A stretch of 64,000 bases of DNA, from NCBI GenBank assembly GCA_964640085.1, contig CAZXFA010000006.1, positions 51,866 through 115,865 on the forward strand, given 5' to 3'. The notes under the pieces were generated by a model. That model was given only the letters and a program-made list of their open reading frames with translations, was not told the origin of the DNA and did not search any database. This DNA is from an uncultured Actinomycetes bacterium. GTDB taxonomy: Bacteria > Actinomycetota > UBA4738 > HRBIN12. A program made the translations under genes and the position numbers. Every line of letters begins with the position of its first letter. The stretch's first letter is position 1. Of the stretch, positions 1-20,998 are shown piece after piece.

Positions 1-741
1 ACAGAACCTGGTCCTGCTTGGCCTCCTCCTTCAGCTTCCAAAGGGTCTCCAGGGAGTCCCAGTTCCTGTCCGCTGCCGAGTTCTGCAGGCGCCCCAGGAG
101 CACCTCATCGACCTCGCCCCGGACCTCCTGCATCAGCGCCCGAAGGTTCAGCGTCGATGACAGCTGCGCGAAGTTGAGCATCCAGTGGATCTTCCAATGG
201 CGATCGTGGACGTCGATCGCGTCCTCCAGGATGGTCGCCCACTCCATGAGCGGGATCTCTTCCCACCGGTCGATCTTCGACTCGAGGTAGTCGAGGTTCC
301 GCCGCATCTCGGGGACCAGGCGGTTGTTCCACCAGTCGGCGAAGTTCAGCCCGTAGGTGGGCAGCACCGCGTTCAGATAATCGCCGATCTTGGACGCGTA
401 GTCCGGGTCGTCTTTCGGGACGCGCGGGGTGTAGAGGTTGCCATATTCCATGGCCTCCACCCGGAAGCTCGGATCAGCGGGGACCGCCGCCGTGTACAGG
501 TACCCGTTGACGTTCTTGGCGATCCAGTCCGACGCGAATGGCGTGCCGAACCTGCGGAACATATGGTCGCAGGTGAGCCACCATCCGCCGATGTCGAAGT
601 ACATCGGGGACAGCGGCTGGGGGCAGTGGAGGTCGTCATAGACCCAGAACAGGCTCTCCTCCGCCTCCGACTCCCACTGCACCGGGAACTCGTCGTCCCC
701 AAGGAACTGCTTGATGACGGTGTCCTCGGTCACGGGGTCCC
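1..741 (-). CDS. Conserved hypothetical protein; the start codon is inside the window and the 3' end runs off the window edge
   Basis: Reverse-strand frame begins GTG at 739-741, preceded by GGAGGGAGGG. Translation VTEDTVIKQFLGDDEFPVQWESEAEESLFWVYDDLHCPQPLSPMYFDIGGWW... is protein-like with no stop to position 1. The listed + ORF 185..871 is low-complexity antisense. Confidence 0.5.
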
Positions 742-961
742 TCCCTCCTCTCACCGGTCGGCCTCTCCCGCCGGCGGCCGGGGCGGCCGACCCATCCTCC
801 AGCCGGCCGACAGGTACCTTCCTCCCGGAGCGTGGCTCCTGGCGCCCGGTTGCGCGCCCCATCGTCGATAATCGATGATATGGAGTCGTGTGGGCTCCCG
901 TCAAGAAGCGACTCAAGGGAGCGACCATTCCGCCGGTCTGCGGGCCCAAGGGGATGACCGC

Positions 962-2396: not shown

Positions 2397-3269
2397 ATGG
2401 ACCTGTTCACCGACGCCCTCGTCATCGGGCTGACCGAGCACGCTCCGCTCGTCCTGGCGGCGATGGGCTTCGCGCTGCTCTACCGGTTGACCGGTCTGAT
2501 CAACGTGGCGTACTCGGAGACGGTCACGCTCGGCGCCTACCTGGGGATGTGGGTGAACACGACCTTCGGGTTGAACTTCTATCTCAGCCTGCTCCCCGCG
2601 GGCTTGCTCGCCGGCCTGATCAGCCTCGCCACGTACTTCGCCATCTTCCGCCCGGCCAGGCAGCGGAACGTCGGAGCCCTCGAGATGATCATCATGTCGT
2701 TCGGGCTCTCGATCCTCCTGCGGTACGGGCTCCAGTTCGTCTTCGGGTACGCGGTCCGCTTCTACGACGTACCGCCCCCCGACACCATCCGCGTGCTCGG
2801 CGTCGGCGTGGCCTCCTTTCGGCTCCTCGCCGTGGCGAGCGTCGCGATCCTCGCCCTCCTGATCTACTGGTTCGTCCAGCGATCCACGTACGGGCTGCAG
2901 ATCCGTGCGCTGGCCAGCGACGAGAACCTCGCGAAGGTGAGCGGGATCCGGCCGCTGGCGGTAACCTCGATGATCTGGTTCCTCGCCGGGGTCGCCGGGG
3001 GGTTGGCGGGCGCGTTCTACGGGGTCGGATCGTCCGTCCGGCCCTGGCTGGGATGGGAGGAGTTCCTCTTCATCCTGCTGGTGGTGCTGGTCGGCGGGAG
3101 GAGGAACATCCGGGGCGTCATCATCGCCGGGGTCGCGACCGGCGTCGCGCTGGCGGCCCTCACCCTCCAGTTCGGACAGGCGCTGTACTCGAGGTTGGCC
3201 CTGATCGTCGCCTTCATGGTCGTCCTGAAGGTGCGCGGGAACCGGTACGCGGAAGCGGGGAAGGTGTAG
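2397..3269 (+). CDS. livH: Branched-chain amino acid ABC transporter permease
   Basis: 290 aa multi-TM protein with typical LivH architecture. It is the first gene of a five-gene ABC cassette. Confidence 0.85.
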   Translation: MDLFTDALVIGLTEHAPLVLAAMGFALLYRLTGLINVAYSETVTLGAYLGMWVNTTFGLNFYLSLLPAGLLAGLISLATYFAIFRPARQRNVGALEMIIMSFGLSILLRYGLQFVFGYAVRFYDVPPPDTIRVLGVGVASFRLLAVASVAILALLIYWFVQRSTYGLQIRALASDENLAKVSGIRPLAVTSMIWFLAGVAGGLAGAFYGVGSSVRPWLGWEEFLFILLVVLVGGRRNIRGVIIAGVATGVALAALTLQFGQALYSRLALIVAFMVVLKVRGNRYAEAGKV

Positions 3270-3272
3270 GGC

Positions 3273-4223
3273 GTGATCCTCGACTGGCTCTCGGCGTTCC
3301 TGATCTTCGGGCTGTTCTTCGTGGTGATGATGATCGGCCTCGCGCTTCTCCTCCACCTCCAGATGGGCCTGGCCGGGATCGGGAACTTCGGCGTCGTGGG
3401 CTTCTGGGGGCTCGGGATGTACGCGTTCGGCGTGCTCTGGGTCCGGGTGGACTGGCCGTTCGCCGAGCCCTGGCCGTTCCTCATCTCGCTGGTCTTCGGC
3501 ACCGTCGTCGCCGGGCTGGCCGGCCTGCTGATCGGATGGTTGATCGCCGACCTGGACACCGACGGCGTCCTCGGCGGAACGCTGGGCTTCGCCACGATCG
3601 TCTTGATCCTCGCGACGACCGAGAAGGGGCTGACCGGCGGCGCGTACGGCATGGGCGGGCTCGAGTTCCCCTTCGACGTCGGGACCGTGAAGACCAACGA
3701 GTTGGTGTGGTTGGGCATCATCGTCGTGCTCGTCGGAGCGATCCTCTACTACGTCGCCCGGGTCCACCGATCGCCGTACGGGCGGTTGCTGATCGCCGTG
3801 GGGGCCAACGAGCCGCTGGCCGACAGCCTGGGCAAGCCGACCTTCGCCACCAAGCTGTGGCTGTTCGTCGTGGGCTCGGCGGGCATGGGGCTGCTCGGCG
3901 CCCTGTATGGCGTGATGGTGCACTTCCTCTCGCCCCTGAAGATCGGGATCGAGATCACCCTGGCGGCCATGGTCGGCCTGGTGCTGGGAGGCCGGGCCCG
4001 GGTCTGGGGGGCGGTGATCGGCGTGGCCCTCACTGTGGGCCTCTTCGACATCGTGGTCCAGCTCTACCTCCCGCTTCCCGAGCGATACAGCGCGCAGGCC
4101 CTACCCGTGCTCCGGGAGGTCCTGTTCGGGGCGACCCTGATGGCCGTGCTCCTGTTCCGACCGCTCGGCGTCCTCGGGCGGATGCGGCGGGACAAGCTCA
4201 TCCGGAGGCAGCACGGTGGGTGA
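3273..4223 (+). CDS. livM: Branched-chain amino acid ABC transporter permease
   Basis: 316 aa polytopic membrane protein lying 3 nt after livH. Confidence 0.85.
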   Translation: MILDWLSAFLIFGLFFVVMMIGLALLLHLQMGLAGIGNFGVVGFWGLGMYAFGVLWVRVDWPFAEPWPFLISLVFGTVVAGLAGLLIGWLIADLDTDGVLGGTLGFATIVLILATTEKGLTGGAYGMGGLEFPFDVGTVKTNELVWLGIIVVLVGAILYYVARVHRSPYGRLLIAVGANEPLADSLGKPTFATKLWLFVVGSAGMGLLGALYGVMVHFLSPLKIGIEITLAAMVGLVLGGRARVWGAVIGVALTVGLFDIVVQLYLPLPERYSAQALPVLREVLFGATLMAVLLFRPLGVLGRMRRDKLIRRQHGG

Positions 4224-5055
4224 CCGTCAGGCCACCGTGGCGCCGATGACCTCCCCCGGCGGGGAGACCGCGGGGAGCCGGCCGACGATCCGCATCGAGT
4301 CGGCGGTGAAAAGCTTCGGTGGACGGGTAGTGGTGGACGTCGACGACCTGACGCTCGGCCAGCATCCGATCGAGGGCTTGATCGGCCCCAACGGCGCGGG
4401 CAAGACGACGCTGCTTCGGATGATCATGCGCTCGGTCAAGCTCGACCGAGGGACGATCACATTGTTCGACCCGGACGTGCCCCGCGATGAGGGCACGGTC
4501 CTGTCGAGCCGGTCCCCCCACGCGATCGCGCGGCTCGGGGTGGTCAAGACGAACCAGGTGATCCAGGACTTCGAGGGGCTCACGGTGTGGGACTCGCTGC
4601 TGCTGTCGGTGGCGGAGCGGACCGACGAGCGCCCGTACCAGATCCACCGTGAGGACGGGCTCTACGAGGAGCACGCGCAGGAGATCCACCGGTACCTGGA
4701 GCGATTCCCGTTCGAGGACCCGTACGGGTTCGCCAACTCGGCGGGAGAGAAGAAGCTCCTGGACATCCTCCGATCCCTGCTCCTGCGGCCGAAGGTCCTC
4801 CTCCTGGATGAGCCCGCCGCCGGCCTGCCGAAGGAGGTCCGGAACCGCGTGATGGCGCTGGTCAGGGAGAAAGTGACCACGGAGAACATCTCGGTGGTGA
4901 TCGTGGAGCACGACCTGAACGTGATCTGGGACATGAGCGACTACGTGCACTTCATGGCCGAGGGTCAGGTGATCCTTCAGGGCGGGCCGGCGTGGATCCG
5001 GGAGCACGAGACGGTGGTGGACAAGTACCTGGGTAGTGGCCATGTTGGAGGCTAG
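4216..5055 (+). CDS. livG: Branched-chain amino acid ABC transporter ATP-binding protein
   Basis: Walker A GPNGAGKTT, ABC signature, Walker B LLLDEPAAG. The start overlaps the livM stop. Confidence 0.85.
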   Translation: MGDRQATVAPMTSPGGETAGSRPTIRIESAVKSFGGRVVVDVDDLTLGQHPIEGLIGPNGAGKTTLLRMIMRSVKLDRGTITLFDPDVPRDEGTVLSSRSPHAIARLGVVKTNQVIQDFEGLTVWDSLLLSVAERTDERPYQIHREDGLYEEHAQEIHRYLERFPFEDPYGFANSAGEKKLLDILRSLLLRPKVLLLDEPAAGLPKEVRNRVMALVREKVTTENISVVIVEHDLNVIWDMSDYVHFMAEGQVILQGGPAWIREHETVVDKYLGSGHVGG

Positions 5056-5734
5056 GCGCATCACCAGCGGCTACGACGGGGTCGCGGTCATCAAGGGACT
5101 CGACCTCAGCATCGAGCACGAGGTCTTCGCGGTCCTGGGGGCCAACGGCGCCGGGAAGACGACCCTGCTGGCCACGCTCGCCCGGTTGATCCCGCTGACC
5201 GGGGGGCGGCTGTGGTTCGAAGGGGAGGACGTCTCGCAACTTCCTCCCTGGGAGACGGCGGCCCGCGGCCTCGGGTACGTACCGCAGGAGCAGGGCATAT
5301 TCCCCGACCTGACCGTGCTCGAGAACCTCCACGTGGGCGCGATGATCGGGCGCCGCTCGCGGGACGAGCGGATCGAGGAAGTCTTCGCGCTGTTCCCCGA
5401 CATCGGGCAGCTGCGCCACCAGCTCGCGGGGACGCTGAGCGGCGGCGAGTCGCGGATGCTGGCGACAGGGCGGGCGCTGATGCAGGACCCGAAGCTGCTG
5501 CTGCTGGACGAGCCCACGGCGGGCCTGTCCCCCATGTATGTGGACCACCTCTTCGAGAGGATCAGGGACATCCGCGAGGAGAAGGGGGTGGCCATCGTCC
5601 TCGCGGAGCAGAACGCGACCAAGGCGCTCGAGGTCGCCGACCGGGTCATGGTGCTCACCCTCGGAGAGGCCTCCGGGATCCTCGACGCCTCGGCGGTGAC
5701 CACCGACTCGCTCAGGGAGGGCTATGGGATCTAG
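5036..5734 (+). CDS. livF: Branched-chain amino acid ABC transporter ATP-binding protein
   Basis: Walker A GANGAGKTT, LSGGE signature, LLLLDEPTAG. Confidence 0.85.
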   Translation: MAMLEARRITSGYDGVAVIKGLDLSIEHEVFAVLGANGAGKTTLLATLARLIPLTGGRLWFEGEDVSQLPPWETAARGLGYVPQEQGIFPDLTVLENLHVGAMIGRRSRDERIEEVFALFPDIGQLRHQLAGTLSGGESRMLATGRALMQDPKLLLLDEPTAGLSPMYVDHLFERIRDIREEKGVAIVLAEQNATKALEVADRVMVLTLGEASGILDASAVTTDSLREGYGI

Positions 5735-5781
5735 ACGCGGATGATGCTGGCGCGGCGTAGTAGGGAGGAGGGGGAAGGCAG

Positions 5782-7125
5782 ATGCGAACACACATCCGAT
5801 GGGTGGGGAAGGTGCCGGCGGTCCTGCTGGCGTTGACCCTGGTGGCGGCGGCGTGCGGGACCGAGGACGAGGGGCCCGGCGCCACCGGAGGAACGGCGCC
5901 CCCGGCGGAGGAGGGGCCGGTCAAGGTGGGCGAGCTCGCCTACTACACCGGCCCGTTCGCGCCCTACGGGCCGTCCCTCACGGCGGACGTCAAGTTCCCG
6001 GTCCTCGAGGTGATCAACGAGGACCCGCCGCTCGGGCGTCCCTGGGAGACGTACCACGAGGACATCGGGACGGTTGGTGAGGGGCAGGCGGCCCGGAAGC
6101 TCGTCGAGCAGATCGGCGTCGACATCCTGGTGAGCCCGGCTCACGAGTACCGCACCTACCGGGACTTCATCCTCGAGATCGTCTCCGAGCAGGACCGGCC
6201 GCTGATGCCGAGCGTCCACGGCGGGACGATCCCCAAGAACGTCGGCGGGACCCCCGAGGAGCCGATCTTCCGGGCCCAGGGTCTCGACGAGGGGTTGGGG
6301 ACGTTCGGCGTGCTGTACGCCGAGGAGATCGGGGTCCAGTCGATCGTCGTCTTCGCCACCCAGGTGGAGGGCTTCCAGCTCGCGGCGGACGCCGCGGAGG
6401 CGGCCGCCGATGCGGTCGGGATCGAGGTGCTGGATCGTCTCAACGCCCAGGCCGAGCAGGCCTCCTACCGGACCGAGGCCGAGAGGATCGCGGACCTCCA
6501 ACCGGATGCGGTCATCGTGCAGGCTGGGTCGGTCGAGTCGGCCACCCTGATCAGGCAGGCGTCGGAGGCCGGCCTGTCGCTCAACTGGATCGGCGAGACC
6601 GGGTGGATCCAGCCGGAGTTCATCGGCACGCTGACGGCAGAGCCGATCTCCGGCCAGAAGGGCATCGGCTACGCGGCGTTCTCGCCCCACACGGACACCC
6701 CGGCCTGGGAGTTCTACCAGCCGCTGTGGGACGACAACCCCGAGTACAACCAGTACGGACCGGCGACCGACCAATACCACTTCTCGACCTACGACATCCT
6801 GATCATCACCGCGCTGGCGGTCGAGGAGGGCGGCTCGTACAACGCGAGCGACTGGGCGCCGGCGATGTTCCGGGTCACCGACCCGCCCGGGACCGTCTGC
6901 TACACCTACCCCGACTGCCTCGAGCTGATCAGGGCAGGTGAGGACATCGACTACGAGGGCGTGACCGGCCCCGGCACGTTCACCTCGGGCGGGGTCAACG
7001 CCGTGACCCCGAGCGTGACGCTGTTCAACGACGACGGCTCGGTCGGCGAGACGATCCTCGTCGACGCCAACCGTGCGCTCGAGATCATCGAGCAGATCGC
7101 GGTCGAGGCGGGTCCCGATTGGTAA
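5782..7125 (+). CDS. ABC transporter substrate-binding lipoprotein, Leu/Ile/Val-binding family
   Basis: Signal peptide with lipobox LTLVAAAC. A 447 aa periplasmic-binding-protein-like sequence completes the cassette. Confidence 0.8.
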   Translation: MRTHIRWVGKVPAVLLALTLVAAACGTEDEGPGATGGTAPPAEEGPVKVGELAYYTGPFAPYGPSLTADVKFPVLEVINEDPPLGRPWETYHEDIGTVGEGQAARKLVEQIGVDILVSPAHEYRTYRDFILEIVSEQDRPLMPSVHGGTIPKNVGGTPEEPIFRAQGLDEGLGTFGVLYAEEIGVQSIVVFATQVEGFQLAADAAEAAADAVGIEVLDRLNAQAEQASYRTEAERIADLQPDAVIVQAGSVESATLIRQASEAGLSLNWIGETGWIQPEFIGTLTAEPISGQKGIGYAAFSPHTDTPAWEFYQPLWDDNPEYNQYGPATDQYHFSTYDILIITALAVEEGGSYNASDWAPAMFRVTDPPGTVCYTYPDCLELIRAGEDIDYEGVTGPGTFTSGGVNAVTPSVTLFNDDGSVGETILVDANRALEIIEQIAVEAGPDW

Positions 7126-7161
7126 GGGTCCCGCGCGGAACGCAACACGTCGACGGAACGA

Positions 7162-7195
7162 GGAGGCGGCGGCGGGGGGTCCCGCTGCCGCCTCC
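7162..7195 (+). terminator. Putative hairpin terminator after the liv operon (no U-tract)
   Basis: Perfect 9-bp inverted repeat GGAGGCGGC...GCCGCCTCC with a 15-nt loop, 37 nt after the stop. Confidence 0.25.
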
Positions 7196-7256
7196 CTGTC
7201 GGCAGACGGGCCCGAAGGCGCACGCGTCCAGTGCGCCGCGATGTGTGGAGTGAGCC

Positions 7257-8063
7257 ATGTTCCCCGGATCCACCGCCCGCTCCGGGAGCATCGTGCTGTC
7301 GGGCGCCCCCAACTTCCGGGATCTGGGCGGGTACCGCACGGAGGATGGCCGGGTCGTTCGCCGTGGCCGGGTCTTCCGATCGGGCCACTTCGCCGAGTTG
7401 ACCGACCCCGACGTGGCGACGCTGGAGGACCTCGGGATCCGCGCCGTGATCGACCTCCGCCTCGAGTTCGAGGTCGGGATTTTCGGGCGCGACCGCCTGC
7501 CGTCTGGGGCGAGCTACCTCTCCCTGCCGATCACCGCCGGCGAGATGGACGCGGCGGCTCACGAGGCTCTCAGGGAGGGCCACCTCACGGCGCTCCCGGA
7601 TCTCGTCGACGCCAACCGCAGCTTCATCCGCGAGAACACGCACGAGCTCGGCGTGCTGCTCGGGATGCTGGCCGATCCCGCCATGCTTCCGCTGGTCTTC
7701 CATTGCATCGGTGGCAAGGACCGCAGCGGGATCGTGGCCGCGGTCGTCCTGTCGGTGCTCGGTGTGCCCTGGGAGACGGTCCGGGAGGATTACCTGCTAA
7801 CCAACGATAGGTACCGCGATCGGATCGAGGAGCAGCTCGCCGCCCTGGCCAGGAACGCACGGGACACGGGCGGCCGGCGCCTGGATGCGGGGGAGCTCGC
7901 GGCGGCCCGCCGGTTCTTCCTCCTCCATCCGAACTACATCGATGCGGCCCGTGACGAGATGATCGCGGTGTCCGGCTCGATCGGGGGCTACGTCCGTGAC
8001 GCGTTGGGCATCCCGAACGAGATCACCGCACGGCTACGCGACTCGCTCCTCGAGGCCCCATAG
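7257..8063 (+). CDS. Protein tyrosine/serine phosphatase (Tyr_Pase_3-like)
   Basis: CX5R P-loop HCIGGKDRSG and the N-terminal NFRDLGG motif. Confidence 0.8.
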   Translation: MFPGSTARSGSIVLSGAPNFRDLGGYRTEDGRVVRRGRVFRSGHFAELTDPDVATLEDLGIRAVIDLRLEFEVGIFGRDRLPSGASYLSLPITAGEMDAAAHEALREGHLTALPDLVDANRSFIRENTHELGVLLGMLADPAMLPLVFHCIGGKDRSGIVAAVVLSVLGVPWETVREDYLLTNDRYRDRIEEQLAALARNARDTGGRRLDAGELAAARRFFLLHPNYIDAARDEMIAVSGSIGGYVRDALGIPNEITARLRDSLLEAP

Positions 8064-8065
8064 CC

Positions 8066-10204
8066 ATGACGCACGTCTTCGCATTCGATCACCCCCATGA
8101 CCTGAGCCTCGAGGAACTGGAGGCGCTGCTCGGGGGCAAGGGGGCGAACCTGGCGATCATGACCGGGCGGCTGGAGATGCCGGTCCCGCCCGGCTTCACG
8201 ATCTCGACCGCCACGTGCCGCGCCTACTTCGACGAGGGTTGGCCCTCCGACCTCGACGAGGAGATCCGCGAGCACCTCGCAAGGCTCGAGACATCCGTCG
8301 ACAGGCTCTTCGGCGATCCGGACGATCCGCTGCTACTGAGCGTGCGATCGGGCGCCCCCGTCTCGATGCCCGGGATGATGGATACGATCCTGAACCTCGG
8401 CCTCAACGACGACACCGCTCGGGGCCTCGCTCGCGTGACGGGGCACCCGCGGTTCGCCGAGGCGTGCCGGAAGCGCTTCGAGACCGCGTACCGCGACATC
8501 GTCGGGCTCGACCGGGTGCCCGAGGACCCCTGGCACCAGCTGCGCGGGGCGATCGAGGCGGTGTTCCGCTCCTGGATCGGGGAGCGCGCCCGCGCCTACA
8601 GGGCGCACGAGGGCATCCCCGACACCTTGGGGACGGGCGTCAACGTCCAGGCGATGGTGTTCGGCAACCGGGGCGCCGACTCGGCCACCGGGGTGGTGTT
8701 CACGCGCAACCCTGCGACGGGGGAAGCCGTCCTGTACGGAGACATCCTGTTCGACGCGCAGGGCGAGGACGTGGTGGCCGGCACGCACCCCACCGAGCCG
8801 ATCTCGGTACTCGACGGGCGCCTTCCCACGGTCGGCGAGGAGCTCCGACGGTACGCCCGCGAGCTGGAGCTCCACTACGCCGACATGTGCGACATCGAGT
8901 TCACGATCGAGCAGGGGCGGCTGTGGCTGCTCCAGGTGCGCGCCGGCAAGCGGAGCCCGCAGGCAGCCTTGCGGATCGCGATCGACATGGCCGAGGATCC
9001 CGGGTTCCCGCTCTCCCGGGGCGAGGCGGTGGCGCAGGTCGCCCGCTACCTCGTCGATCCGCCGCGCATCGCCGTGGGGCCTACGGCCGACCTCCCGGTG
9101 GCGGCGACCGGGGTGGCCGCCTCCCCGGGGATCGCCTCCGGGGAGATCGCCGTGACCTGCGACGACGCCGTCGATCGGGCGGCCGAGGGGAGGGACGTGA
9201 TCCTCGTGCGTCGCGAAACGAGCCCCGAAGACGTCCACGGCATGGCGAAGGCGAAGGGGATCCTCACCTCCGTCGGTGGTCCGGCGAGCCACGCCGCCGT
9301 CGTCGCCAGGGGATGGGGCATCCCCGCGGTCGTCGGCGCGACGGCCGTGCGGGTGGATGGCGATCACGTCGTGATCGGTAACCACCGCCTAGCCGTCGGC
9401 GACACGATCAGCATCGATGGGAGCAGTGGGAAGGTCCTCATCGGCGCCGCAGAGACGGAGACCGCGATCGCTCCGGAGGCCGCCATCCTGCTCGGGTGGG
9501 CCTCGGAGCTGGGCATCGATGTGGGCGCGGCGGCAGGGAGGGGAGGTGCGGTGACAGACAGGGGAGAAGGACCGGCCCGGGTTGCGATCACGACCGAGTC
9601 GCTCGTCCGGTCGCTGCTGATCAAGGGGTTCGCGACGCCGGCGGCGCTCGCCGAAGCCTTCGGGGTCTCCGAGGAGCAGATGGCGGCGGGGCTCGACCAG
9701 CTGGTCGCGGACGGCCTGGCGTCTGTGGCGGGGACCATGTTCCAGCTGACCCCGGATGGGAAGGCGATCGGCGCGGAGTTGATCTCGTCGGATCGCGAGC
9801 GTTGGGGCCCGGACGAAGCCGTCGCAGCTCTCGAGGCGTTCTCGGGACTGGATCTCCGCATGAAGCAGATCGTGACCGCGTGGCAGATGCGCGAGCGCGA
9901 CGGCGAGACGGTCCTCAACGATCACTCGGATCCGGCGTACGACGACGCGGTGCTTGCCGACCTCCGCGCGTTCGCCGAGGACGCTCACCGGTGGCTCGGC
10001 GTCCTGATCGAGGGGCTCTCCCGCCTCGCCGCCTATCGGGACCGTCTGGATCGAGCCGCCACCCTGGTGGCCAAAGGGGACCACCGGTACATCGCGTCAC
10101 CGCAGCTCGACAGCTACCACACGGCCTGGTTCGAGCTCCACGAGGACCTGATCCTCCTCGCCGGCAGGACCCGGGAGGACGAAGCCGCCGCCGGGCGCGC
10201 CTAG
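8066..10204 (+). CDS. Pyruvate-phosphate-dikinase-like protein: N-terminal ATP-grasp plus phosphohistidine swivel domain, no PEP/pyruvate TIM barrel, novel C-terminal region of about 240 aa
   Basis: LGGKGANLAIMT motif and GGPASHAAVVARGWGIPAVVG (PEP-utilizing-enzyme His motif). The C-terminus has no similarity to the PPDK catalytic barrel and contains a winged-helix-like segment. The start lies 2 nt after the phosphatase stop. Confidence 0.75.
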   Translation: MTHVFAFDHPHDLSLEELEALLGGKGANLAIMTGRLEMPVPPGFTISTATCRAYFDEGWPSDLDEEIREHLARLETSVDRLFGDPDDPLLLSVRSGAPVSMPGMMDTILNLGLNDDTARGLARVTGHPRFAEACRKRFETAYRDIVGLDRVPEDPWHQLRGAIEAVFRSWIGERARAYRAHEGIPDTLGTGVNVQAMVFGNRGADSATGVVFTRNPATGEAVLYGDILFDAQGEDVVAGTHPTEPISVLDGRLPTVGEELRRYARELELHYADMCDIEFTIEQGRLWLLQVRAGKRSPQAALRIAIDMAEDPGFPLSRGEAVAQVARYLVDPPRIAVGPTADLPVAATGVAASPGIASGEIAVTCDDAVDRAAEGRDVILVRRETSPEDVHGMAKAKGILTSVGGPASHAAVVARGWGIPAVVGATAVRVDGDHVVIGNHRLAVGDTISIDGSSGKVLIGAAETETAIAPEAAILLGWASELGIDVGAAAGRGGAVTDRGEGPARVAITTESLVRSLLIKGFATPAALAEAFGVSEEQMAAGLDQLVADGLASVAGTMFQLTPDGKAIGAELISSDRERWGPDEAVAALEAFSGLDLRMKQIVTAWQMRERDGETVLNDHSDPAYDDAVLADLRAFAEDAHRWLGVLIEGLSRLAAYRDRLDRAATLVAKGDHRYIASPQLDSYHTAWFELHEDLILLAGRTREDEAAAGRA

Positions 10205-10207
10205 CGC

Positions 10208-12769
10208 CTACCGGAGCAACCGGAGGCGGCTGCCGCGCGGGGACTTCTCGACCTCGATCCGCGTCGGGAGCCGGATCGCGAGCTCCTGGACGTGGGTGAT
10301 AACCCCGACCATACGGCCGTCGCCCCCGAGCTGCTCGATCGCCTCCACCACGACCTCGAGCGACTCGGGGTCCAGCGTGCCGAACCCCTCGTCCAGGAAC
10401 AGCGAGTCCAGGCGCGCCTTCTCCGTGACCGCGAGCGAGCGCACCTGCTCGGACAGCGCGAGAGCCAGCGCGAGCGATGCGAGGAACGTCTCGCCTCCAG
10501 AGAGCGTCCGCGCGCTGCGCCGCTCCTCGCCGTTCCAGGTGTCGACCACCGAGAACTCGTCCTCCTCGAACTCCAGCCGGTATCGACCCTGCGAGAGCGA
10601 GGCCAGACGGTCGGAGCCGGCCGCGGCGAGCAGCTGGAGCGCCTCGAGCTGGAGGAACGCGATCAGGCGGTCCTGGCGCAGCTCCTTGGCGAGCGCGTCG
10701 AGCACCCGGGCCCGCGCCCGCTGCTCGATGGCCTCCGCCGCGACCGCCTGGGCGTTCGCGAGCTGCTCGCGGGCGCGGACGACCCGGTCCTCCATGGTCG
10801 CGGCCTCGCGGGCGGCCTCGGTCCGGGCCGCCGTGACGTCCCGGACGACCTCGGCCATCGTCGCGGCTCGGACCGAGACGAGCCCCTGGAGGTGGGCGGC
10901 CGCTTCGCGGAGGAAGGCTTCCTCACCCTCGGCGCGCTCGGCCGCGGCCACGGCCAGCTCGTCCGCCACCTCGTCGAGCCTCGAGGCCAGGGTTCCCGCC
11001 GCCGAGGCGAGAGCTGCTGCGTCCTCCTTCCCCGCGGGTGGCGAGGGCGCCTCCCCTACCTCCGCGACCAGCGACCGGGCACGGGCGAGGAGCCCGCTGG
11101 CCGCGATCGACAGCAGGCGCGTCCGCTCCTCGGTCAGCCGGACGATCAGGGCGTCGCGCTCGCGCTCGGCCCCGACGAGCGCGTCGCGAGCGCCGGCGAG
11201 CGCCTCGTGCGCCTCGCGTTCGGTCTCCTCCAGGGCCTCGAGCTCCCGCCAACGCTCGTCGATCGTGCCCACCGGATCGTCGGGGACCGCCCCACCCAGC
11301 GCCCCGGCGAGCGCGGTCTCGATCCGTGTCGCGTCCCGCCGAGCCTTAGCCGCGGCCTTGTCGCATCGGGCGACCTCGTCGCGGCCGGCGGCGAGCGCGG
11401 CCACCGCGGAAGTCCCGAGGCGCTCGGCCTCGGCCAGGCCGACCCGGGCCTCCTCGGCCCCGGCGCGCGCCCGCTCGAGCACCGCCCGTGCCCGGTCCAG
11501 CGGGACGGCCGTGGCCCCTTCCGGGAGCTTGGCGATCTTCCTTCCGCAGACGGGACACGGATCCCCCGGGCGCACGCCGGTGCGGACCGCGACGACCAGG
11601 TCGGCGTGCCGCGCGTCCTCGAGCGCCGCCTCGGCGGCGCCGAGCGTCTCCACCGCCGCCTCGGCCCGGACGACCCAGCCGTCCACCGCCTCGCGGGCTG
11701 CCGCCTCAGCCTTCTCGAGCGCCGGGACCGCCTCGTTCGCCTCGTGGACCTCGGCCTCCGCCTCGGCGAGCGCGTCCCGCACGTCGAGGAACGCCTCCGC
11801 CTTCGCGCGGAGCCCGGCGAGCTCGACCGCCCTGCCCCACGACGTCTCGGCCCGCGCACGCGCGGCCTCGGCCTTCGTCACGCGTTTCTCGGCGGCCGCG
11901 ATCGCCTTCGTCCGCTCCTTCAGCTGGGTGCCCACCTCCGCCGCGCGCCCGGCGAGCTCACCGGCGGCCGCCGCGACGCCCCCCGCGATCGCGGCCGCCT
12001 CCCGGAGATCCCGCTCGCAGGTCCGCAGCTCGCCGATCGAACGTTCGGCTTCGGTCCAGCGGTCGGCCGCCTCCCGCACCTGCACCTCCGCCTTCGATAG
12101 CGCCGCCTCGCGCTCGGCGGCCGTCGCCGCGAGGGTCTCGGCCTCCCCGACGCCCTCGGGACTCACCCCCGCGTACTCGGTCTCCAGGAGCGCGCTCATG
12201 GCCTTGGCCTCGGCATCGGCCCCGCGCCTGAGGTCTCCGGCCCGACGTCCGAGCCGCTCGAACAGCTCCAGGCCAAGCAGATCGGTCAGGATCGCCCGGC
12301 GCTCCTTGGCGTCGCCCACCAGGAATTCCGCGAACCGGCCCTGCGGCAGCAGCACCGTCCGGGTGAACGCCTCGTAGTCCAGACCGATCGCGCCTTGGAT
12401 CATCGAGTTGGCCTCGCGAACGCGATCGGCCCCCTCGCCGGCCTGACGCCAGTCGCCGTCCCACCGCTCCACCAGCACGCTCGAGGAGCCCTTCGCGGGC
12501 GTCGCACGGCCGACCCGCCACCGCTCCCCTCCCACCGCGAACTCGAAGGAGACAGCCAGCCGCGGCTGTCCCTGGCTGATGAACTGGCTGGTCTGCTTCC
12601 CGACCCGCTCGATGTACCCGAACAGCGCGTAAGTGATCGCGTCCAGGATCGACGTCTTGCCCGAGCCGGTCGGACCCGAGATCGCGAACAGGTCGAGGCC
12701 CTCGAAGTCGATCTCCTGCCCGTCGCGGAACGCGGTGAAGCCCTTGACCTCGAGCCGCAGCGGCCTCAC
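10208..12769 (-). CDS. sbcC: DNA double-strand break repair ATPase SbcC (Rad50-like)
   Basis: N-terminal Walker A ISGPTGSGKTSILDAI, long coiled-coil, C-terminal LSGGETF signature and D-loop. The GTG at 12769 overlaps the sbcD stop (GTGA). The longer ORF to 13045 is an Arg/Gly-rich artefact. Confidence 0.85.
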   Translation of the reverse strand: MRPLRLEVKGFTAFRDGQEIDFEGLDLFAISGPTGSGKTSILDAITYALFGYIERVGKQTSQFISQGQPRLAVSFEFAVGGERWRVGRATPAKGSSSVLVERWDGDWRQAGEGADRVREANSMIQGAIGLDYEAFTRTVLLPQGRFAEFLVGDAKERRAILTDLLGLELFERLGRRAGDLRRGADAEAKAMSALLETEYAGVSPEGVGEAETLAATAAEREAALSKAEVQVREAADRWTEAERSIGELRTCERDLREAAAIAGGVAAAAGELAGRAAEVGTQLKERTKAIAAAEKRVTKAEAARARAETSWGRAVELAGLRAKAEAFLDVRDALAEAEAEVHEANEAVPALEKAEAAAREAVDGWVVRAEAAVETLGAAEAALEDARHADLVVAVRTGVRPGDPCPVCGRKIAKLPEGATAVPLDRARAVLERARAGAEEARVGLAEAERLGTSAVAALAAGRDEVARCDKAAAKARRDATRIETALAGALGGAVPDDPVGTIDERWRELEALEETEREAHEALAGARDALVGAERERDALIVRLTEERTRLLSIAASGLLARARSLVAEVGEAPSPPAGKEDAAALASAAGTLASRLDEVADELAVAAAERAEGEEAFLREAAAHLQGLVSVRAATMAEVVRDVTAARTEAAREAATMEDRVVRAREQLANAQAVAAEAIEQRARARVLDALAKELRQDRLIAFLQLEALQLLAAAGSDRLASLSQGRYRLEFEEDEFSVVDTWNGEERRSARTLSGGETFLASLALALALSEQVRSLAVTEKARLDSLFLDEGFGTLDPESLEVVVEAIEQLGGDGRMVGVITHVQELAIRLPTRIEVEKSPRGSRLRLLR

Positions 12770-13953
12770 CCGGGTGACACCTCGTCCGAGCCCACCGTCT
12801 CCAGCGCGAGCACCTCGTCGAAGGCGGCGAGCAGCTCCTCGGACGGCGGGACGCCGTGGCTGGTCCGGTGGTAGGCGATGAACTGCTCGCGCGGGTGCAG
12901 GGACGAGATCGGCTCGCCCCCAGCTCCGCCCCCCTCGGCGCGCTCGTAGACCAGGTGAACGTCGAGCGCGTTCGGCAGCTCCTCGCGGATCCGGTCGGCG
13001 ATGCCGGGCACCGGCCCCTCGGTCTCGACGAACACCCGCAGCCACGCGTCGCCGGTCTCGACACCCTGTGCCACGACGTCGTCCAGGGTCCCGCGGAGAT
13101 CGCGCAGCGGGCGCCCCGCCGAGAGGGCCACCTCGGTCACCTTCGCCGGCCGGCCCGGGTGCGCCTCGACGATCGTCACCGCCTTGCGCTGCCCCGCCTC
13201 CCCGAAATCAAGCTGGAGGAGCGAGCCTGCGTACCGCGCCGGGGCCGGCGAGCCCTTCACCGCCTGCGGCAGGTGCACGTGGCCGAGCGCCACGTAGGCC
13301 GCTCGTGCCGGCAGACGAGAGGGTGGCACCGCATACGCGATCCCGATCGTGAGCTCCCGTTCCCCACCGCCCGGCGCGACGAGGGCGCCGTCCGTGAACA
13401 GGTGCCCCATCACGATGGGGATCCGTCCTCGCGTGAACCCGGACGTCATCGCCCCGAGGAGCTCGCCCATCCCCTGGGCGTAGCTCTGGTACCAGGTCTC
13501 GCTCGCATCGAACAGCGCCGCCGCGTCGCCGAACCGGCGCTCGGGCACGAACGGGATCGCCGCGACCTCGGCCTCCTGGGCGCCGTCGCGGCTCGGGACC
13601 ACCAGCACGCCGCCGGCCTCGGGCCGGGCCACCTTCGGCACGACCTCGACGCCGAGCGGCCGCAGCAGCCTCCCGAACGCCTCCATCCGGATCGCGGAGT
13701 CGTGGTTGCCGGGGATCACGAGGACCCTGATCCCCTCCTCGTGCAGACGGAGGAACGCGTCGAAGACCAACGCATCGGCGTCGGGCTGCGGCGAGCGATG
13801 CTCGTACACGTCGCCGGCGAGCAGCACGGCGTCGACGCCCTCGTCGATCGCGATCGTCACGACCTGGTCGAGCGCCGCGGCGAACTCGTCGGTCCGCGAT
13901 CGGCCGCGGATCGCCCGTCCCACGTGCCAGTCGGCCGTGTGCAGGAACCGCAC
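12766..13953 (-). CDS. sbcD: Nuclease SbcD (Mre11-like phosphoesterase)
   Basis: DWHVG, GDVYEH and GNHD calcineurin-like phosphoesterase motifs. GTG start. Confidence 0.85.
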   Translation of the reverse strand: MRFLHTADWHVGRAIRGRSRTDEFAAALDQVVTIAIDEGVDAVLLAGDVYEHRSPQPDADALVFDAFLRLHEEGIRVLVIPGNHDSAIRMEAFGRLLRPLGVEVVPKVARPEAGGVLVVPSRDGAQEAEVAAIPFVPERRFGDAAALFDASETWYQSYAQGMGELLGAMTSGFTRGRIPIVMGHLFTDGALVAPGGGERELTIGIAYAVPPSRLPARAAYVALGHVHLPQAVKGSPAPARYAGSLLQLDFGEAGQRKAVTIVEAHPGRPAKVTEVALSAGRPLRDLRGTLDDVVAQGVETGDAWLRVFVETEGPVPGIADRIREELPNALDVHLVYERAEGGGAGGEPISSLHPREQFIAYHRTSHGVPPSEELLAAFDEVLALETVGSDEVSPG

Positions 13954-13956
13954 CCC

Positions 13957-15636
13957 TCAGTCCCCTTCGAACGCGGTGAACGGATCCCCGCCCGACGTGG
14001 CCTCGTCCGCGCGCGTGGCCCAGGACGGGAACGGGAACCGGATCTGGAGCGGCACCGGGATGTGCGGCTGCTGGAGGATCATCGAGCCGGGCTTGAGGAT
14101 CGACGCGCGGGCGCGGGTCACGGCCGGCAGGAACCCGTACTCGCTGCGCGCGGCCTCCGCCGTGTCGAGCCGCCCGACCACCCGGAACGCGCTGTTCGCG
14201 ATCACGCGCCGCTCCACCTCGGAGGCGGTCTGCTCGGCTCCCACCAGGATCATCCCCAGGGACCGGCCTCGCTCGGCGACGTCGAGCAGCACCTCCTTGA
14301 TCGGGCTCCACCCCTCGCGCGGCGCGTATCGGTTCAGCTCGTCGAGGACGAGGAAGGCGAGGGGCTCGCGGCGCCCCATCCGCTCCTTGTGCTCGAACAG
14401 GCGCTTGATCACCACGCCGGTCACGAACCGCTTGGCCCGATCGTGCAGGGCGTGGATGTCCACCACGGTTACCTGGTTCGCCTCGAAGTCGATCCGGTGA
14501 CGCTCGGGGTGCTCAGCCTCTCGCCCGACGATCAGGTGCCCCATCCGGAAGCGGGCCGCGTCGAGCCGGCGGACGAATGCCGCGACCGTCGCGTCCGACA
14601 GCCGGCCGCGCCACGGCGAGACGTCGTCCTCGACGTTCTGGCGGATCACCTCGCACAGCCCGTCGAAGTCGTGGACGGGATACCCGCCGAACACCACCGT
14701 CGCGTCGTTCTCCGGGTCCTCGTCGCACTCGCGGTCGAGCGCGGACTCGACACGCGCGACCAGGTCCGCGATCTGCGACCGCTCGTCCTCGGCCTCCGCG
14801 AACATGAATCGGAGGAGCTTCTCGCGCACGAACTCGCGCACCGTCCAGGAGTAGGCGACCACCCCCTCCGAGCGCCCCTCCACCTGCGGGATCTCGCGCC
14901 CGGCGGCGTCGGCCCGGATCGGCGCCCACAGGCCCACGCTCTCGAAGGCCCCGGAGGGCAGGCCGAGCCGCCGGTGGTCCTCGCGGTCCTCGTCCGTGAG
15001 CTTGGCGTTGGGCGTGTCGAGCCACATCAGGTCCTCGCCCTTCACGTTGAACACGATCGCCTTGGTGTTGGAGCCGTAGCTCCCCAGCACCTCGGAGTGG
15101 AACAGCGCATAGAGCAGGAAGAGGGCGTAGGTGGTCTTCGTCGCGACCCCCGACACGCCGCTGATGTTCACGTGGGCGCCACGCGTGCCGTCGAGGAAGT
15201 CCAGGTCCAGGAACACGGCTTCCCCGTCCCGGGTGAGTCCGGCCGGCAGACGCCGCTGCATCTGGTCGAAGTACAGGGCCTCGTCCCGGTCCCGGCCGCG
15301 AGCGCGGAAGGCGGGCAGCCCGGGCATCGGCGGGACGAACACCTCCGGCTCGAACCGGGTGGCCACGACCTGCGCCGCGACCGCGGTGTCGACCGGGAGG
15401 ACCCCCCGATCGACCAGGAACACATCGGTGTCGAACGTGGCCCCCTCGTGCCGCGCGCGGACGTCCTGGACGATGCCGGCGATCCGCACGCGGCCCCGCC
15501 CGGGGACCTCCGTGTCCACCACCACGGCGTCGTCGAGCTGCAGGTACGCCGTCTCGGCCACACCGACCCAGAACGTCAGCGGGGTGGCATCCTCGGTCCC
15601 CAGCACCATGCCGACCGGTTCCGAGCGCTCGTCCAC
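13957..15636 (-). CDS. herA: HerA-like (FtsK/HerA superfamily) ATPase
   Basis: P-loop-like SGVSGVATKTTY and Walker B FLVLDELNRYAP. 559 aa. The stop is 3 nt from the sbcD start. Confidence 0.6.
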   Translation of the reverse strand: MDERSEPVGMVLGTEDATPLTFWVGVAETAYLQLDDAVVVDTEVPGRGRVRIAGIVQDVRARHEGATFDTDVFLVDRGVLPVDTAVAAQVVATRFEPEVFVPPMPGLPAFRARGRDRDEALYFDQMQRRLPAGLTRDGEAVFLDLDFLDGTRGAHVNISGVSGVATKTTYALFLLYALFHSEVLGSYGSNTKAIVFNVKGEDLMWLDTPNAKLTDEDREDHRRLGLPSGAFESVGLWAPIRADAAGREIPQVEGRSEGVVAYSWTVREFVREKLLRFMFAEAEDERSQIADLVARVESALDRECDEDPENDATVVFGGYPVHDFDGLCEVIRQNVEDDVSPWRGRLSDATVAAFVRRLDAARFRMGHLIVGREAEHPERHRIDFEANQVTVVDIHALHDRAKRFVTGVVIKRLFEHKERMGRREPLAFLVLDELNRYAPREGWSPIKEVLLDVAERGRSLGMILVGAEQTASEVERRVIANSAFRVVGRLDTAEAARSEYGFLPAVTRARASILKPGSMILQQPHIPVPLQIRFPFPSWATRADEATSGGDPFTAFEGD

Positions 15637-17992: not shown

Positions 17993-18055
17993 GGAGGCTC
18001 GAGAGCCCCCCTGGTGGGCCCGGCGCCGCTTCGGCGGCGCCGGGCCCACGCCCGC

Positions 18056-19219: not shown

Positions 19220-19222
19220 CGA

Positions 19223-20407: not shown

Positions 20408-20440
20408 CAGCTGCCCCCTCGGTACGGACGATGCATCAGT

Positions 20441-20968: not shown

Positions 20969-20998
20969 GGCGTCGAACGGTACCAGGCGGGGACGTCC

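Follow-up and report, generated by a model that had tools for sequence, protein, structure and literature searches.

The question that this locus raises is what a protein of the pyruvate, phosphate dikinase (PPDK) type may phosphorylate, and with which partners, when it has no PEP/pyruvate TIM barrel and is encoded directly behind a phosphatase. In the window, that is, the whole 64-kb stretch of DNA that was analyzed, the genes and domains concerned are these:

2..724, minus strand: HpeH/PpsA-like gene, 5' part; the remainder lies beyond the left edge of the window
2397..7125, plus strand: Liv-type ABC transporter with two permeases, two ATPases and a Peripla_BP_6 binding protein (Pfam)
7257..8063, plus strand: MptpB-like Y_phosphatase3 Cys phosphatase, 268 aa (PF13350 match)
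8066..10204, plus strand: VadK-type truncated PPDK fused to a winged-helix (wHTH)/helical-bundle partner module, 712 aa
8066..9085, plus strand: ATP-grasp nucleotide-binding domain of the 712-aa protein, residues ~1-340 (PF01326)
9086..9469, plus strand: its phosphohistidine swivel domain, residues ~341-468 (PF00391)
9470..9592, plus strand: its linker, predicted by AF2 as a helix (470-482), then disordered (488-505)
9593..9748, plus strand: its winged-helix subdomain, residues ~510-561, acidic
9749..10201, plus strand: its helical-bundle subdomain, residues ~562-712, with a conserved polar cluster

Both reading frames of the gene pair are as the sequence-only reading had described them, with the dikinase-like gene starting 2 nt past the stop of the CX5R phosphatase gene: the stop TAG (8061-8063) is followed by 'CC' and then by the ATG at 8066. 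A GGAG lies 6 nt upstream of the phosphatase ATG, and a GAGG (8052-8055) stands ahead of the ATG of the 712-aa gene. The window neighbours of the pair are the ABC transporter, an E1 alpha subunit and SbcCD.

The 712-aa protein matches PPDK_N (PF01326, E 8.6e-49) and PEP-utilizers (PF00391, E 6e-23) in Pfam and gives no Pfam match to PEP-utilizers_C, the PEP/pyruvate TIM barrel. Its alignment with C. symbiosum PPDK, to which it is 42% identical over the first two domains, stops at about PPDK residue 528. These results bear out the earlier domain reading of an ATP-grasp domain and a phosphohistidine swivel domain without a barrel. The protein contains the motifs LGGKGANLAIMT and GGPASHAAVVARGWG (His409); the codon of the catalytic His409, in the motif GGPASHAAV, is at 9290-9292 within GGPASHAAVVARG. 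This residue is invariant among 41 homologues; Arg94, in the SVRSGA of the ATP-grasp domain, is invariant too. No barrel is encoded in the whole window (best tblastn E 0.68) or in 82 related genome loci. Since more than 120 proteins (707-743 aa, 61-75% identity), mostly from Acidimicrobiia and Chloroflexota MAGs, match over 100% of its length, the architecture is not a chance open reading frame.

A protein of this kind is VadK, the 'virulence-associated dikinase' of M. tuberculosis (Rv1127c), which has the operonic partner Rv1126c (EMBO Rep 2026, PMC13400623). We aligned the window protein with VadK, the M. parmense and Nocardia proteins and the PPDKs of C. symbiosum and maize. A helical insert of ~46 residues in canonical PPDK is missing from the window ATP-grasp domain, and this 46-residue deletion is common to VadK, M. 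parmense and Nocardia and is not found in canonical PPDK. With both the barrel and the insert missing, the window protein would therefore be unable to make or use PEP. VadK His422 and the ATP-binding Arg106 correspond to window His409 and Arg94. The NCBIfam model NF004531 is passed marginally (481.8 bits, cut-off 456), with M. parmense scoring 721 and Nocardia 691, and the PPDK equivalog model TIGR01828 is failed (522.4 bits vs a cut-off of 843.45). Judged by these sequence features, the core is a VadK-type truncated PPDK, predicted to act as a barrel-less phosphohistidine enzyme. The architecture that had seemed new is thus the VadK type of 2025-26 (PMC13400623), named by NF004531, while the general analogy to RPH-type dikinases is supported.

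Another question regards the last ~200 residues, to which no Pfam or NCBIfam model matches above threshold. Structure prediction gave a winged helix and a helical bundle at high confidence (pLDDT 93). In the full-length AF2 model the position of this module is not fixed (pTM 0.64) and the linker is disordered; the block that contains residues 491-500 has a pLDDT of 24. Fold searches returned only generic wHTH and four-helix-bundle matches and no enzyme-like fold, which agrees with the earlier description of a winged-helix-like region with no known catalytic match. Because these matches are generic, it is conservation alone that suggests a catalytic role for the module. About 18 polar residues of the bundle (His, Asp, Glu, Arg) are invariant or nearly so across phyla, up to the C-terminus; the cluster comprises WQ 606-607, NDHSD 618-622, R653, Y657, R660, DSYHxxWFELHED 682-694 and the C-terminal AAGRA.

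The sequence-only reading had called this domain novel and a substrate domain swapped in, and neither description holds. The module belongs to a large conserved family (1400 cluster representatives at E<=1e-3), many members of which are ~205 aa long and are encoded by a separate gene. These stand-alone members align over their full length with the module (32-41% identity over ~200 residues) and have the WQ, NDHxD and DSYHxxWFELHE motifs in common with it. Their genes are found beside a VadK-type gene, or at most two genes off, in M. parmense, N. farcinica, Nocardioides, Porticoccaceae, M. elephantis, Gordonia, Haloechinothrix and M. pinniadriaticum; plasmids of Rhodococcus, M. avium, M. branderi and Diaphorobacter show the same arrangement. 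Among the stand-alone loci a VadK-type gene is adjacent or near in 12, and none is present in 7, mostly short contigs. As the family is usually encoded by a separate neighbour gene, the window protein is a fusion of two known neighbours. In M. tuberculosis, Rv1126c co-purifies with VadK and its removal needs 2 M NaCl (PMC13400623). Based on its size, its position and the mycobacterial homologues, Rv1126c probably belongs to the same family; if so, the fusion in the window identifies this partner as a third module that is part of the enzyme itself.

The 268-aa protein matches Y_phosphatase3 (PF13350, E 3.5e-59, 201 bits), with the P-loop HCIGGKDRSG at residues 149-158 (Cys150 codon 7704-7706), and its sequence relatives in the PDB are M. 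tuberculosis PtpB (1ywf) and 8dhi. It resembles MptpB (PtpB, 1ywf) in family and in the P-loop pattern HC(x)2GKDR(S/T)G; the two differ in that their identity is low and that MptpB is not known to be genomically coupled to a dikinase. A phosphatase gene is present in 18/18 Nocardia loci and in 5/40 non-Nocardia loci. It is absent from the two closest relatives (74-75% identical), in which synteny is otherwise the same, and none of 80 relatives of the window phosphatase lies near a dikinase-type gene, so the phosphatase is not an obligate partner. Its linkage is lineage-specific and it is an optional accessory. Tyrosine phosphatase (PTP) genes stand beside such clusters in the window, in the related locus L003, in all the Nocardia loci and in Haloechinothrix; a His_Phos_1 gene does so in N. 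farcinica and a SurE gene on the Rhodococcus plasmid pA. That a kinase and a phosphatase work on a small molecule, as suggested earlier, gains comparative support from the three unrelated phosphatase families that adjoin related clusters. This also matches the phosphorylate-transform-dephosphorylate logic of the Hpe pathway, a precedent in which the phosphate put on the substrate is taken off again after a carboxylation (PMC12167813).

A further component, overlooked by the earlier note, is the HpeH-like protein. The window gene at 2-724(-) is 85% identical to the 617-aa and 671-aa proteins of L003 and L169, which carry Rph_4th and PEP-utilizers (swivel) domains. It lies 6.5 kb from the 712-aa gene on the opposite strand, with the ABC transporter between it and the phosphatase/fused genes, in a region that is syntenic in the closest relatives, L169 and the P0002 contig (73-88% identity). 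An HpeH-like gene is found in 19/40 non-Nocardia loci with full flanks vs 0/80 control loci, and this protein is a more widely recurring third component than the phosphatase. Its gene belongs to closely packed operons in Gordonia (L056), Diaphorobacter (L172, 4-nt overlaps) and Porticoccaceae (L167), and L063 and L071 encode 1342-aa proteins in which the HpeH-like part is fused N-terminally to the VadK-plus-partner unit. HpeH, CreH and PpsA depend on a second protein for the ATP-grasp domain (PMC12167813). The VadK-type gene is the sole PPDK_N gene called in L169, the P0002 contig, L165, L166 and L167.

On balance we lean towards the reading that the 712-aa protein is the ATP module of a multi-component (three-part) small-molecule dikinase. 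From the observed domain content, conservation, fusions and synteny we infer the catalytic steps, the direction of transfer and the kind of substrates as follows. The ATP-grasp domain would bind ATP and (pyro)phosphorylate His409 on the swivel domain; M. tuberculosis VadK autophosphorylates the equivalent His with ATP/Mg (PMC13400623). The C-terminal module may occupy the place of the PPDK barrel and serve the swivel domain as a docking or catalytic partner. Next, the phosphoryl group would be passed to, or used together with, the HpeH/PpsA-like protein (Rph_4th substrate binding and a swivel His of its own), which would phosphorylate a small molecule, possibly the solute that the ABC transporter encoded in between takes up. 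The co-transcribed MptpB-like phosphatase would most likely take the phosphate off at a later step or return a phospho-protein to its unphosphorylated state. The catabolic gene neighbourhoods of the related loci, listed below, and the several phosphatase families beside such clusters are in favour of this reading. Against this multi-component reading, no HpeH-like gene lies within 6 kb at about half of the fused loci and the closest relatives have no phosphatase; the published VadK model is also one of regulatory protein-protein action (methylcitrate synthase/dehydratase) and not of small-molecule phosphorylation (PMC13400623). The 7 stand-alone loci that show no VadK-type gene, the distance and opposite strand of the HpeH-like gene in the window and the unfixed position of the C-terminal module in the AF2 model also count against it. 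The role of the second swivel domain is left without explanation, because the characterised two-component dikinases use an ATP-grasp-only subunit.

A bolder proposal, which we put forward tentatively and as a doubtful one, is that VadK-type proteins supply the ATP module to a three-component phosphorelay dikinase that is widespread, and are not lone histidine kinases confined to pathogenic mycobacteria. Phosphate would move from the ATP-grasp domain to the first swivel His, then by way of the wHTH/bundle docking or catalytic subunit to the second swivel His, that of the HpeH-like protein, and finally to the small molecule. A 'Rosetta stone' for the assembly would be provided by the window protein together with the 1342-aa triple fusions. 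M. tuberculosis VadK-Rv1126c would be its pathogen version, possibly joined by an Rph_4th/swivel protein from another part of the genome, and dedicated phosphatases from several families would complete the cycle. If Rv1126c is in the C-terminal family, the HpeH/PpsA-like linkage and the fusion offer a testable candidate destination of the VadK phosphate.

One other explanation, in line with the earlier note, is that the gene pair is self-contained: with the C-terminal module as its acceptor-binding catalytic domain, the 712-aa protein would phosphorylate a small molecule or protein by itself, and the CX5R phosphatase would reverse the reaction. The near-invariant polar residues of the bundle would suit such a role, as would the third domain that binds the acceptor in every other family member (PMC12167813, PMC4844700), the fused loci with no HpeH-like gene nearby and the close spacing of the two genes (2 nt here, 4-nt overlaps or 5-nt gaps in Nocardia). 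We consider it unlikely, given how rarely the phosphatase accompanies such genes outside Nocardia, the generic fold of the module and the HpeH-like fusions and operons, which indicate a further component. Slightly less probable still is a VadK-like regulatory histidine kinase that tunes metabolic enzymes, as proposed for VadK and methylcitrate synthase, and whose state is reset by the phosphatase. Only the VadK type has experiments behind it (autophosphorylation, MCS/MCD co-IP, flux phenotypes), and kinase/phosphatase pairing is typical of regulatory switches. Yet no prpDC (methylcitrate) genes were found in the window or the related loci examined, whose neighbourhoods are variable and catabolic (Rieske dioxygenases, P450/ADH/ALDH, acyl-CoA synthetases, SDRs, GntR-FCD regulators). 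The identity to M. tuberculosis VadK is only 42%, the same as to true PPDK, and the HpeH-like protein that recurs as a partner is a component of small-molecule kinases.

The name 'MarR family transcriptional regulator', which some stand-alone members carry in databases, would suit a one-component transcription factor whose winged helix binds DNA under the control of ATP-dependent His phosphorylation. This is very improbable. A MarR Pfam match above threshold is absent and only the generic fold is common; the wHTH is acidic or neutral (mean net charge -0.6; helix-3/wing segment -0.9), with no basic residue in the window segment EEQMAAGLDQLVADGLA; conservation in the family sits in the bundle and not in the recognition helix; and the clusters encode separate GntR, MarR or TetR regulators. 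The winged-helix subdomain is thus probably not DNA-binding. The idea that we give hardly any weight is a disrupted or decaying ppdK, with its barrel lost by frameshift or encoded elsewhere. It would account for the database names 'pyruvate, phosphate dikinase' and for the similarity to the first two domains of C. symbiosum PPDK, but the TIGR01828 score is far below its cut-off and the C-terminal module is strongly conserved and predicted to fold confidently. The many full-length homologues and the lack of a barrel remnant in the window or the 82 loci led us to reject it.

How does the multi-component reading compare with known systems? With VadK the window protein shares the ATP-grasp domain and swivel His without a barrel, the 46-residue deletion and the NF004531 assignment, and the small partner protein encoded alongside VadK is here fused into one polypeptide. 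It differs in its modest identity, in the absence of the methylcitrate-cycle genes prpDC and prpR nearby and in its host, an environmental high-GC bacterium with Acidimicrobiia MAGs as the source of the nearest named homologues. The likeness to the two-component dikinases HpeHI, CreHI and PpsAB(C) and to the single-chain rifampin phosphotransferase RPH lies in the split between an ATP-grasp component and a substrate-binding/swivel His component (PMC12167813, PMC4844700) and in the HpeH-like gene of the window neighbourhood, the aromatic or catabolic contexts and the later dephosphorylation step of the pathway. Unlike HpeI, CreI and PpsB, the ATP component in the window is of the PPDK type and contains a swivel His domain as well as the fused wHTH/bundle module, and so departs from the ATP-grasp-only (~40 kDa) subunit of two-component dikinases. 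Phenylphosphate synthase also has a third accessory subunit of ~24 kDa. PpsC is a CBS protein, not related to the wHTH/bundle module.

The first two domains are homologous to those of canonical PPDK (TIGR01828; PDB 1dik, 1kbl) at E 1e-119, with the same His/Arg motifs, and the differences are the TIM barrel and the helical insert of the nucleotide-binding domain. Plant glucan water dikinase is likewise PPDK-derived, with the barrel replaced by another substrate module, and its phosphate is removed by the CX5R dual-specificity phosphatases SEX4/LSF2; its substrate modules are CBMs and not a wHTH/bundle, it is eukaryotic and the genes are unlinked. The N-terminal domain of PTS Enzyme I joins a swivel His to an all-helical subdomain onto which the next phosphocarrier docks, a possible functional analogy to the bundle, although PEP and not ATP is the donor and there is no detectable sequence or fold-specific similarity.

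For M. tuberculosis, VadK was recently proposed to be a virulence kinase and a target for drugs (PMC13400623). The assembly suggested here would form a third architectural class of small-molecule dikinases, beside RPH (one chain) and HpeHI/CreHI/PpsAB (two chains), and the names 'pyruvate, phosphate dikinase' and 'MarR family regulator' are probably wrong for hundreds of database entries. The VadK-type family is broadly environmental and not a pathogen specialisation: it ranges over Acidimicrobiia, Chloroflexota, Dormibacterota, Myxococcota, beta- and gamma-proteobacteria and the catabolic plasmids of Rhodococcus and Mycobacterium.

The sequence-only reading had described a tyrosine phosphatase gene lying 2 nt upstream of a gene for a protein resembling pyruvate phosphate dikinase (PPDK), and the two reading frames have the sizes and the spacing that it gave:

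7257-8063, plus strand, phosphatase gene, 268 amino acids
8066-10204, plus strand, fused gene, 712 amino acids

The TAG stop codon of the phosphatase gene (8061-8063) is followed by CC and then by the ATG of the fused gene at 8066, with a GAGG located 10 nt 5' of this ATG. Scanning of 6900-10500 for promoters and terminators gave nothing meaningful. The 268 amino acid product matches Pfam Y_phosphatase3 (E 3.5e-59) and contains the P-loop HCIGGKDRSG with Cys150, which bears out its description as a CX5R tyrosine phosphatase; among proteins of known structure, it is related to PtpB of M. tuberculosis (1ywf) and to 8dhi.

Pfam analysis of the 712 amino acid protein shows a PPDK_N domain and a PEP-utilizers swivel domain but no PEP-utilizers_C domain. 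His409 lies within GGPASHAAVVARG, and Arg94 within SVRSGA. Its alignment with C. symbiosum PPDK (E 1e-119) stops at about PPDK residue 528, and it fails the PPDK equivalog model TIGR01828 (522 bits vs a cut-off of 843). A PEP/pyruvate barrel, including a frameshifted or elsewhere-encoded one that the earlier reading had named as the finding that would speak against it, was looked for in the window and in 82 related loci and was not found, so that the barrel is indeed missing, as had been claimed. The protein passes NCBIfam NF004531 (481.8 bits, cut-off 456), a model of 534 positions named 'pyruvate, phosphate dikinase'. In a comparison using the sequence of M. tuberculosis VadK (Rv1127c) from the alignment file of PMC13400623, the window protein had the same identity, 42%, to VadK and to C. 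symbiosum PPDK; mutual identity is 52–53% among VadK, the Nocardia protein and the homologues from M. parmense and M. pinniadriaticum. The window protein and all of these VadK-type proteins lack a helical insert of ~46 residues that PPDK has in its nucleotide-binding domain, and this common derived loss groups the window protein with VadK. Judged by sequence, its N-terminal two thirds are thus of the VadK type. VadK is a truncated PPDK that autophosphorylates His422 with ATP/Mg; M. tuberculosis needs it for virulence and to grow on propionate and cholesterol (PMC13400623).

Four other explanations were weighed for the fused gene, two of them being a pseudogene and a transcription factor. A dikinase gene that lacks its barrel can be taken for a broken ppdK, yet this is ruled out by the absence of a barrel in the window and related loci together with the existence of a full-length homologue family: more than 120 proteins of 707–743 amino acids, mainly from Acidimicrobiia, 'Actinobacteria' and Limnocylindria metagenome-assembled genomes (MAGs) and named 'pyruvate, phosphate dikinase' in the databases, match 100% of the window protein at 61–75% identity. 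In an alignment of 41 sequences conservation of the last 200 residues matches that of the catalytic domains, with W606, Q607, N618, D619, H620, R653, Y657, R660, S678, P679, D682-H685, W688-E690, H692-L695, R703, E706 and G710-A712 invariant, i.e., up to the C-terminus. The transcription factor reading would draw on the winged helix (wHTH), which had been suspected from the sequence and is present in the AF2 model of the C-terminal module (pLDDT 93, built on an alignment of 46 C-terminal fragments), and on the 'MarR family' label that some members of the family carry in databases. In this model a linker helix and a disordered stretch are followed by the winged helix and a long-helix bundle with a β-hairpin. 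DNA binding is made unlikely by the charge of the module, which is acidic or neutral in the wHTH and strongly acidic in the bundle, and by the concentration of sequence conservation in the bundle. The full-length AF2 model (pLDDT 86, pTM 0.64) has a flexible tether at 488-505 and gives no confident inter-domain arrangement.

An exhaustive HMMER search with the C-terminal module returned 1400 cluster representatives at E<=1e-3, of which 820 reach E<=1e-10; stand-alone proteins of ~200–210 amino acids are numerous among them and the remainder are fused behind swivel domains. In 12 of 19 stand-alone loci examined, a VadK-type gene adjoins the wHTH/bundle gene or is close to it:

M. parmense: 549-aa VadK-type gene, then 204-aa stand-alone gene
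Porticoccaceae MAG: partner and VadK-type gene, 4-nt overlap
M. avium plasmid: partner and VadK-type gene, 8-nt overlap
N. farcinica, Nocardioides, M. elephantis: partner beside or near VadK-type gene
Gordonia, Haloechinothrix, M. pinniadriaticum: the same
Plasmids of Rhodococcus pyridinivorans, M. branderi, Diaphorobacter: the same

No VadK-type gene was seen in the available flanks of the other seven, mostly short contigs. The Nocardia proteins, like the window protein, carry both parts in one chain. From its position, its size and its mycobacterial homologues, Rv1126c, the 201 amino acid operonic partner of VadK, is very probably a member of the same family. The apparent stand-alone C-terminal fragments of two Mb-size contigs (L001 and L002) were rejected as frameshift artefacts, the adjoining genes being split too: in these long-read MAG assemblies the dikinase gene is cut up into several ORFs, as are the MoCo-dehydrogenase genes beside it, and such errors place false 'stand-alone' domain proteins in protein databases. 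A further match, on a Rhodococcus sp. LW-XY12 plasmid (NZ_CP079228.1, 85292-85783; H3), lies under a gene annotated 'AMP-binding protein' and could be another fusion (acyl-CoA synthetase plus module) or an annotation merge.

Many loci also encode an HpeH-like protein of 540–670 amino acids. It combines an Rph_4th-type domain with a swivel His domain at its C-terminus and is similar to the last two thirds of RPH, PigC/RedH and PRK08296 proteins. Of the 40 non-Nocardia loci whose 6-kb flanks are complete, 19 have its gene, compared with none of 80 control loci, and in a Pfam census of the fused-locus neighbourhoods it was the sole conserved operon partner found; SDR, MoCo hydroxylase and metallo-β-lactamase genes are merely frequent there. 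Genes that join it to the system, and its window copy, are:

2-724, minus strand, partial HpeH-like gene (the window starts inside it), 85% identical to the L003 and L169 proteins
2590-6618 of L063, 1342-aa fusion, Deltaproteobacteria/Myxococcota MAG
2596-6624 of L071, 1342-aa fusion, Deltaproteobacteria/Myxococcota MAG

The N-terminal part encoded by 2-724 is not recognized by itself by Pfam or NCBIfam. In both fusions the HpeH-like unit is N-terminal to the VadK-plus-partner unit; these chains hold two swivel His domains, a complete VadK-type unit and the wHTH/bundle module. Two other large proteins (P0279 and P0292) each have PPDK_N, two swivel stretches and the C-terminal module. Partner, VadK-type and HpeH-like genes are joined by 4-nt overlaps in Gordonia (L056) and are consecutive in Porticoccaceae (L167); in Diaphorobacter (L172) a 4-nt overlap links the first two, and just upstream of them lies the HpeH-like gene. 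The nearest relatives of the 712 amino acid protein have a GntR-FCD regulator gene and the HpeH-like gene divergent from five Liv-type ABC transporter genes and the fused gene. In the window, 5782-7125 codes for the Peripla_BP_6 binding protein of this transporter. The VadK-type gene is the sole PPDK_N gene called in L169, the P0002 contig, L165, L166 and L167. GntR-FCD genes recur beside VadK-type, partner or HpeH-like genes (L003, L058, L073, L166, L168 and L169), and the plasmid clusters L170-L172 repeatedly contain APH-like 'phosphotransferase family' genes.

HpeH, CreH and PpsA phosphorylate phenolic substrates and are strictly dependent on a separate ATP-grasp protein (HpeI, CreI or PpsB), and in the Hpe pathway the phosphate is later taken off again (PMC12167813). 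Composition, conservation, fusion and synteny are what the data show, and the model that they support best is a small-molecule dikinase made of three parts, all the chemistry of which we infer. The VadK-type ATP-grasp/swivel unit would be the ATP module and the HpeH-like protein would bind the acceptor. The wHTH/bundle unit, fused in the window protein and occupying the place of the PPDK barrel, would be an obligate subunit that docks a swivel domain or possibly aids that domain's catalysis. Three points stand against this model: it does not account for a second swivel domain, in half of the fused loci no HpeH-like gene is seen close by, and the published model of VadK is regulatory, a methylcitrate-cycle regulator acting via protein contacts (PMC13400623), which would favor the third alternative, a regulatory kinase.

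The last alternative is a self-contained kinase/phosphatase pair, as the sequence-only reading suggested. The 2-nt coupling supports it, and so does Nocardia, where a Y_phosphatase3 gene (P-loop HCAAGKDRTG) lies directly downstream in 18 of 18 loci, with a 5-nt gap or overlap. However, in the two closest relatives, which are 74–75% identical and share the synteny, the fused gene is preceded by a gap of ~200 nt that holds no phosphatase, and none of 80 metagenome loci around phosphatase relatives has VadK, C-terminal-family or HpeH-like genes, so that the phosphatase family overall is not dedicated to the dikinase system. The Y_phosphatase3 gene is directly upstream in the window and in Acidimicrobiaceae L003, divergent and adjacent in Haloechinothrix, and at 1–4 kb in two further loci. 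With at least three different arrangements and only 35–38% identity between the window and Nocardia phosphatases, independent recruitment is likely. In our reading the phosphatase serves these clusters as an exchangeable accessory and is not the defining partner of the dikinase.

Other phosphatase genes were also seen. A His_Phos_1 gene (L165, N. farcinica, 6308-6886, minus strand) and a SurE 5'/3'-nucleotidase gene (L170, Rhodococcus pyridinivorans pA, 7749-8537, minus strand) each lie directly beside a stand-alone wHTH/bundle gene; the pA cluster adds P450, alcohol dehydrogenase and aldehyde dehydrogenase genes and is reminiscent of the cresol (Cre) pathway. Three Nocardia loci (L078, L061 and L076) have a second Y_phosphatase3 paralogue close to the dikinase cluster. 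In L078 (8032-12490, minus strand) it directly follows a 1156 amino acid epimerase, Rph_4th and swivel protein, whose best models are NF008972 and NF004520 ('sugar epimerase family protein'), the latter of which probably corresponds to M. tuberculosis Rv2047c; in L061 and L076 a further swivel-domain match lies just past it.

Truncated PPDK (VadK) and two-component dikinases are already known. In the literature searched we found no description of the fused 712 amino acid form, of the wHTH/bundle family as a third subunit, of its linkage to HpeH-like proteins or of its wide environmental distribution. Given this distribution, the published statement that VadK arose in pathogenic mycobacteria and related genera needs qualifying (PMC13400623).

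Around the window locus, an SbcC-like gene (10208-13045, minus strand) is convergent with the fused gene at a 3-nt gap and is preceded by an SbcD gene (12766-13953, minus strand); SbcC is downstream in L003 too, so that this placement looks like ordinary housekeeping synteny. Beyond it are:

13957-15636, minus strand, ORF of 559 aa, no Pfam or NCBIfam match
15643-16602, minus strand, ORF of 319 aa, no Pfam or NCBIfam match
16754-17992, histidine-kinase gene, HisKA and HATPase_c
18014-22033, plus strand, ORF of 1339 aa, no Pfam match

The unusual codon-position GC of the last ORF (GC1 0.93, GC3 0.73) suggests a low-complexity protein or a wrong frame. On the other side, 875-1993 (plus strand) is a lone pyruvate/2-oxoacid dehydrogenase-type E1 alpha gene that stays under the TIGR03182 cut-off and has no adjoining E1 beta gene. 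The syntenic L169 lacks it, and the P0002 contig retains an 81 amino acid remnant of it. Near the N. farcinica cluster (L165) there is also a pair of E1 alpha and beta genes.
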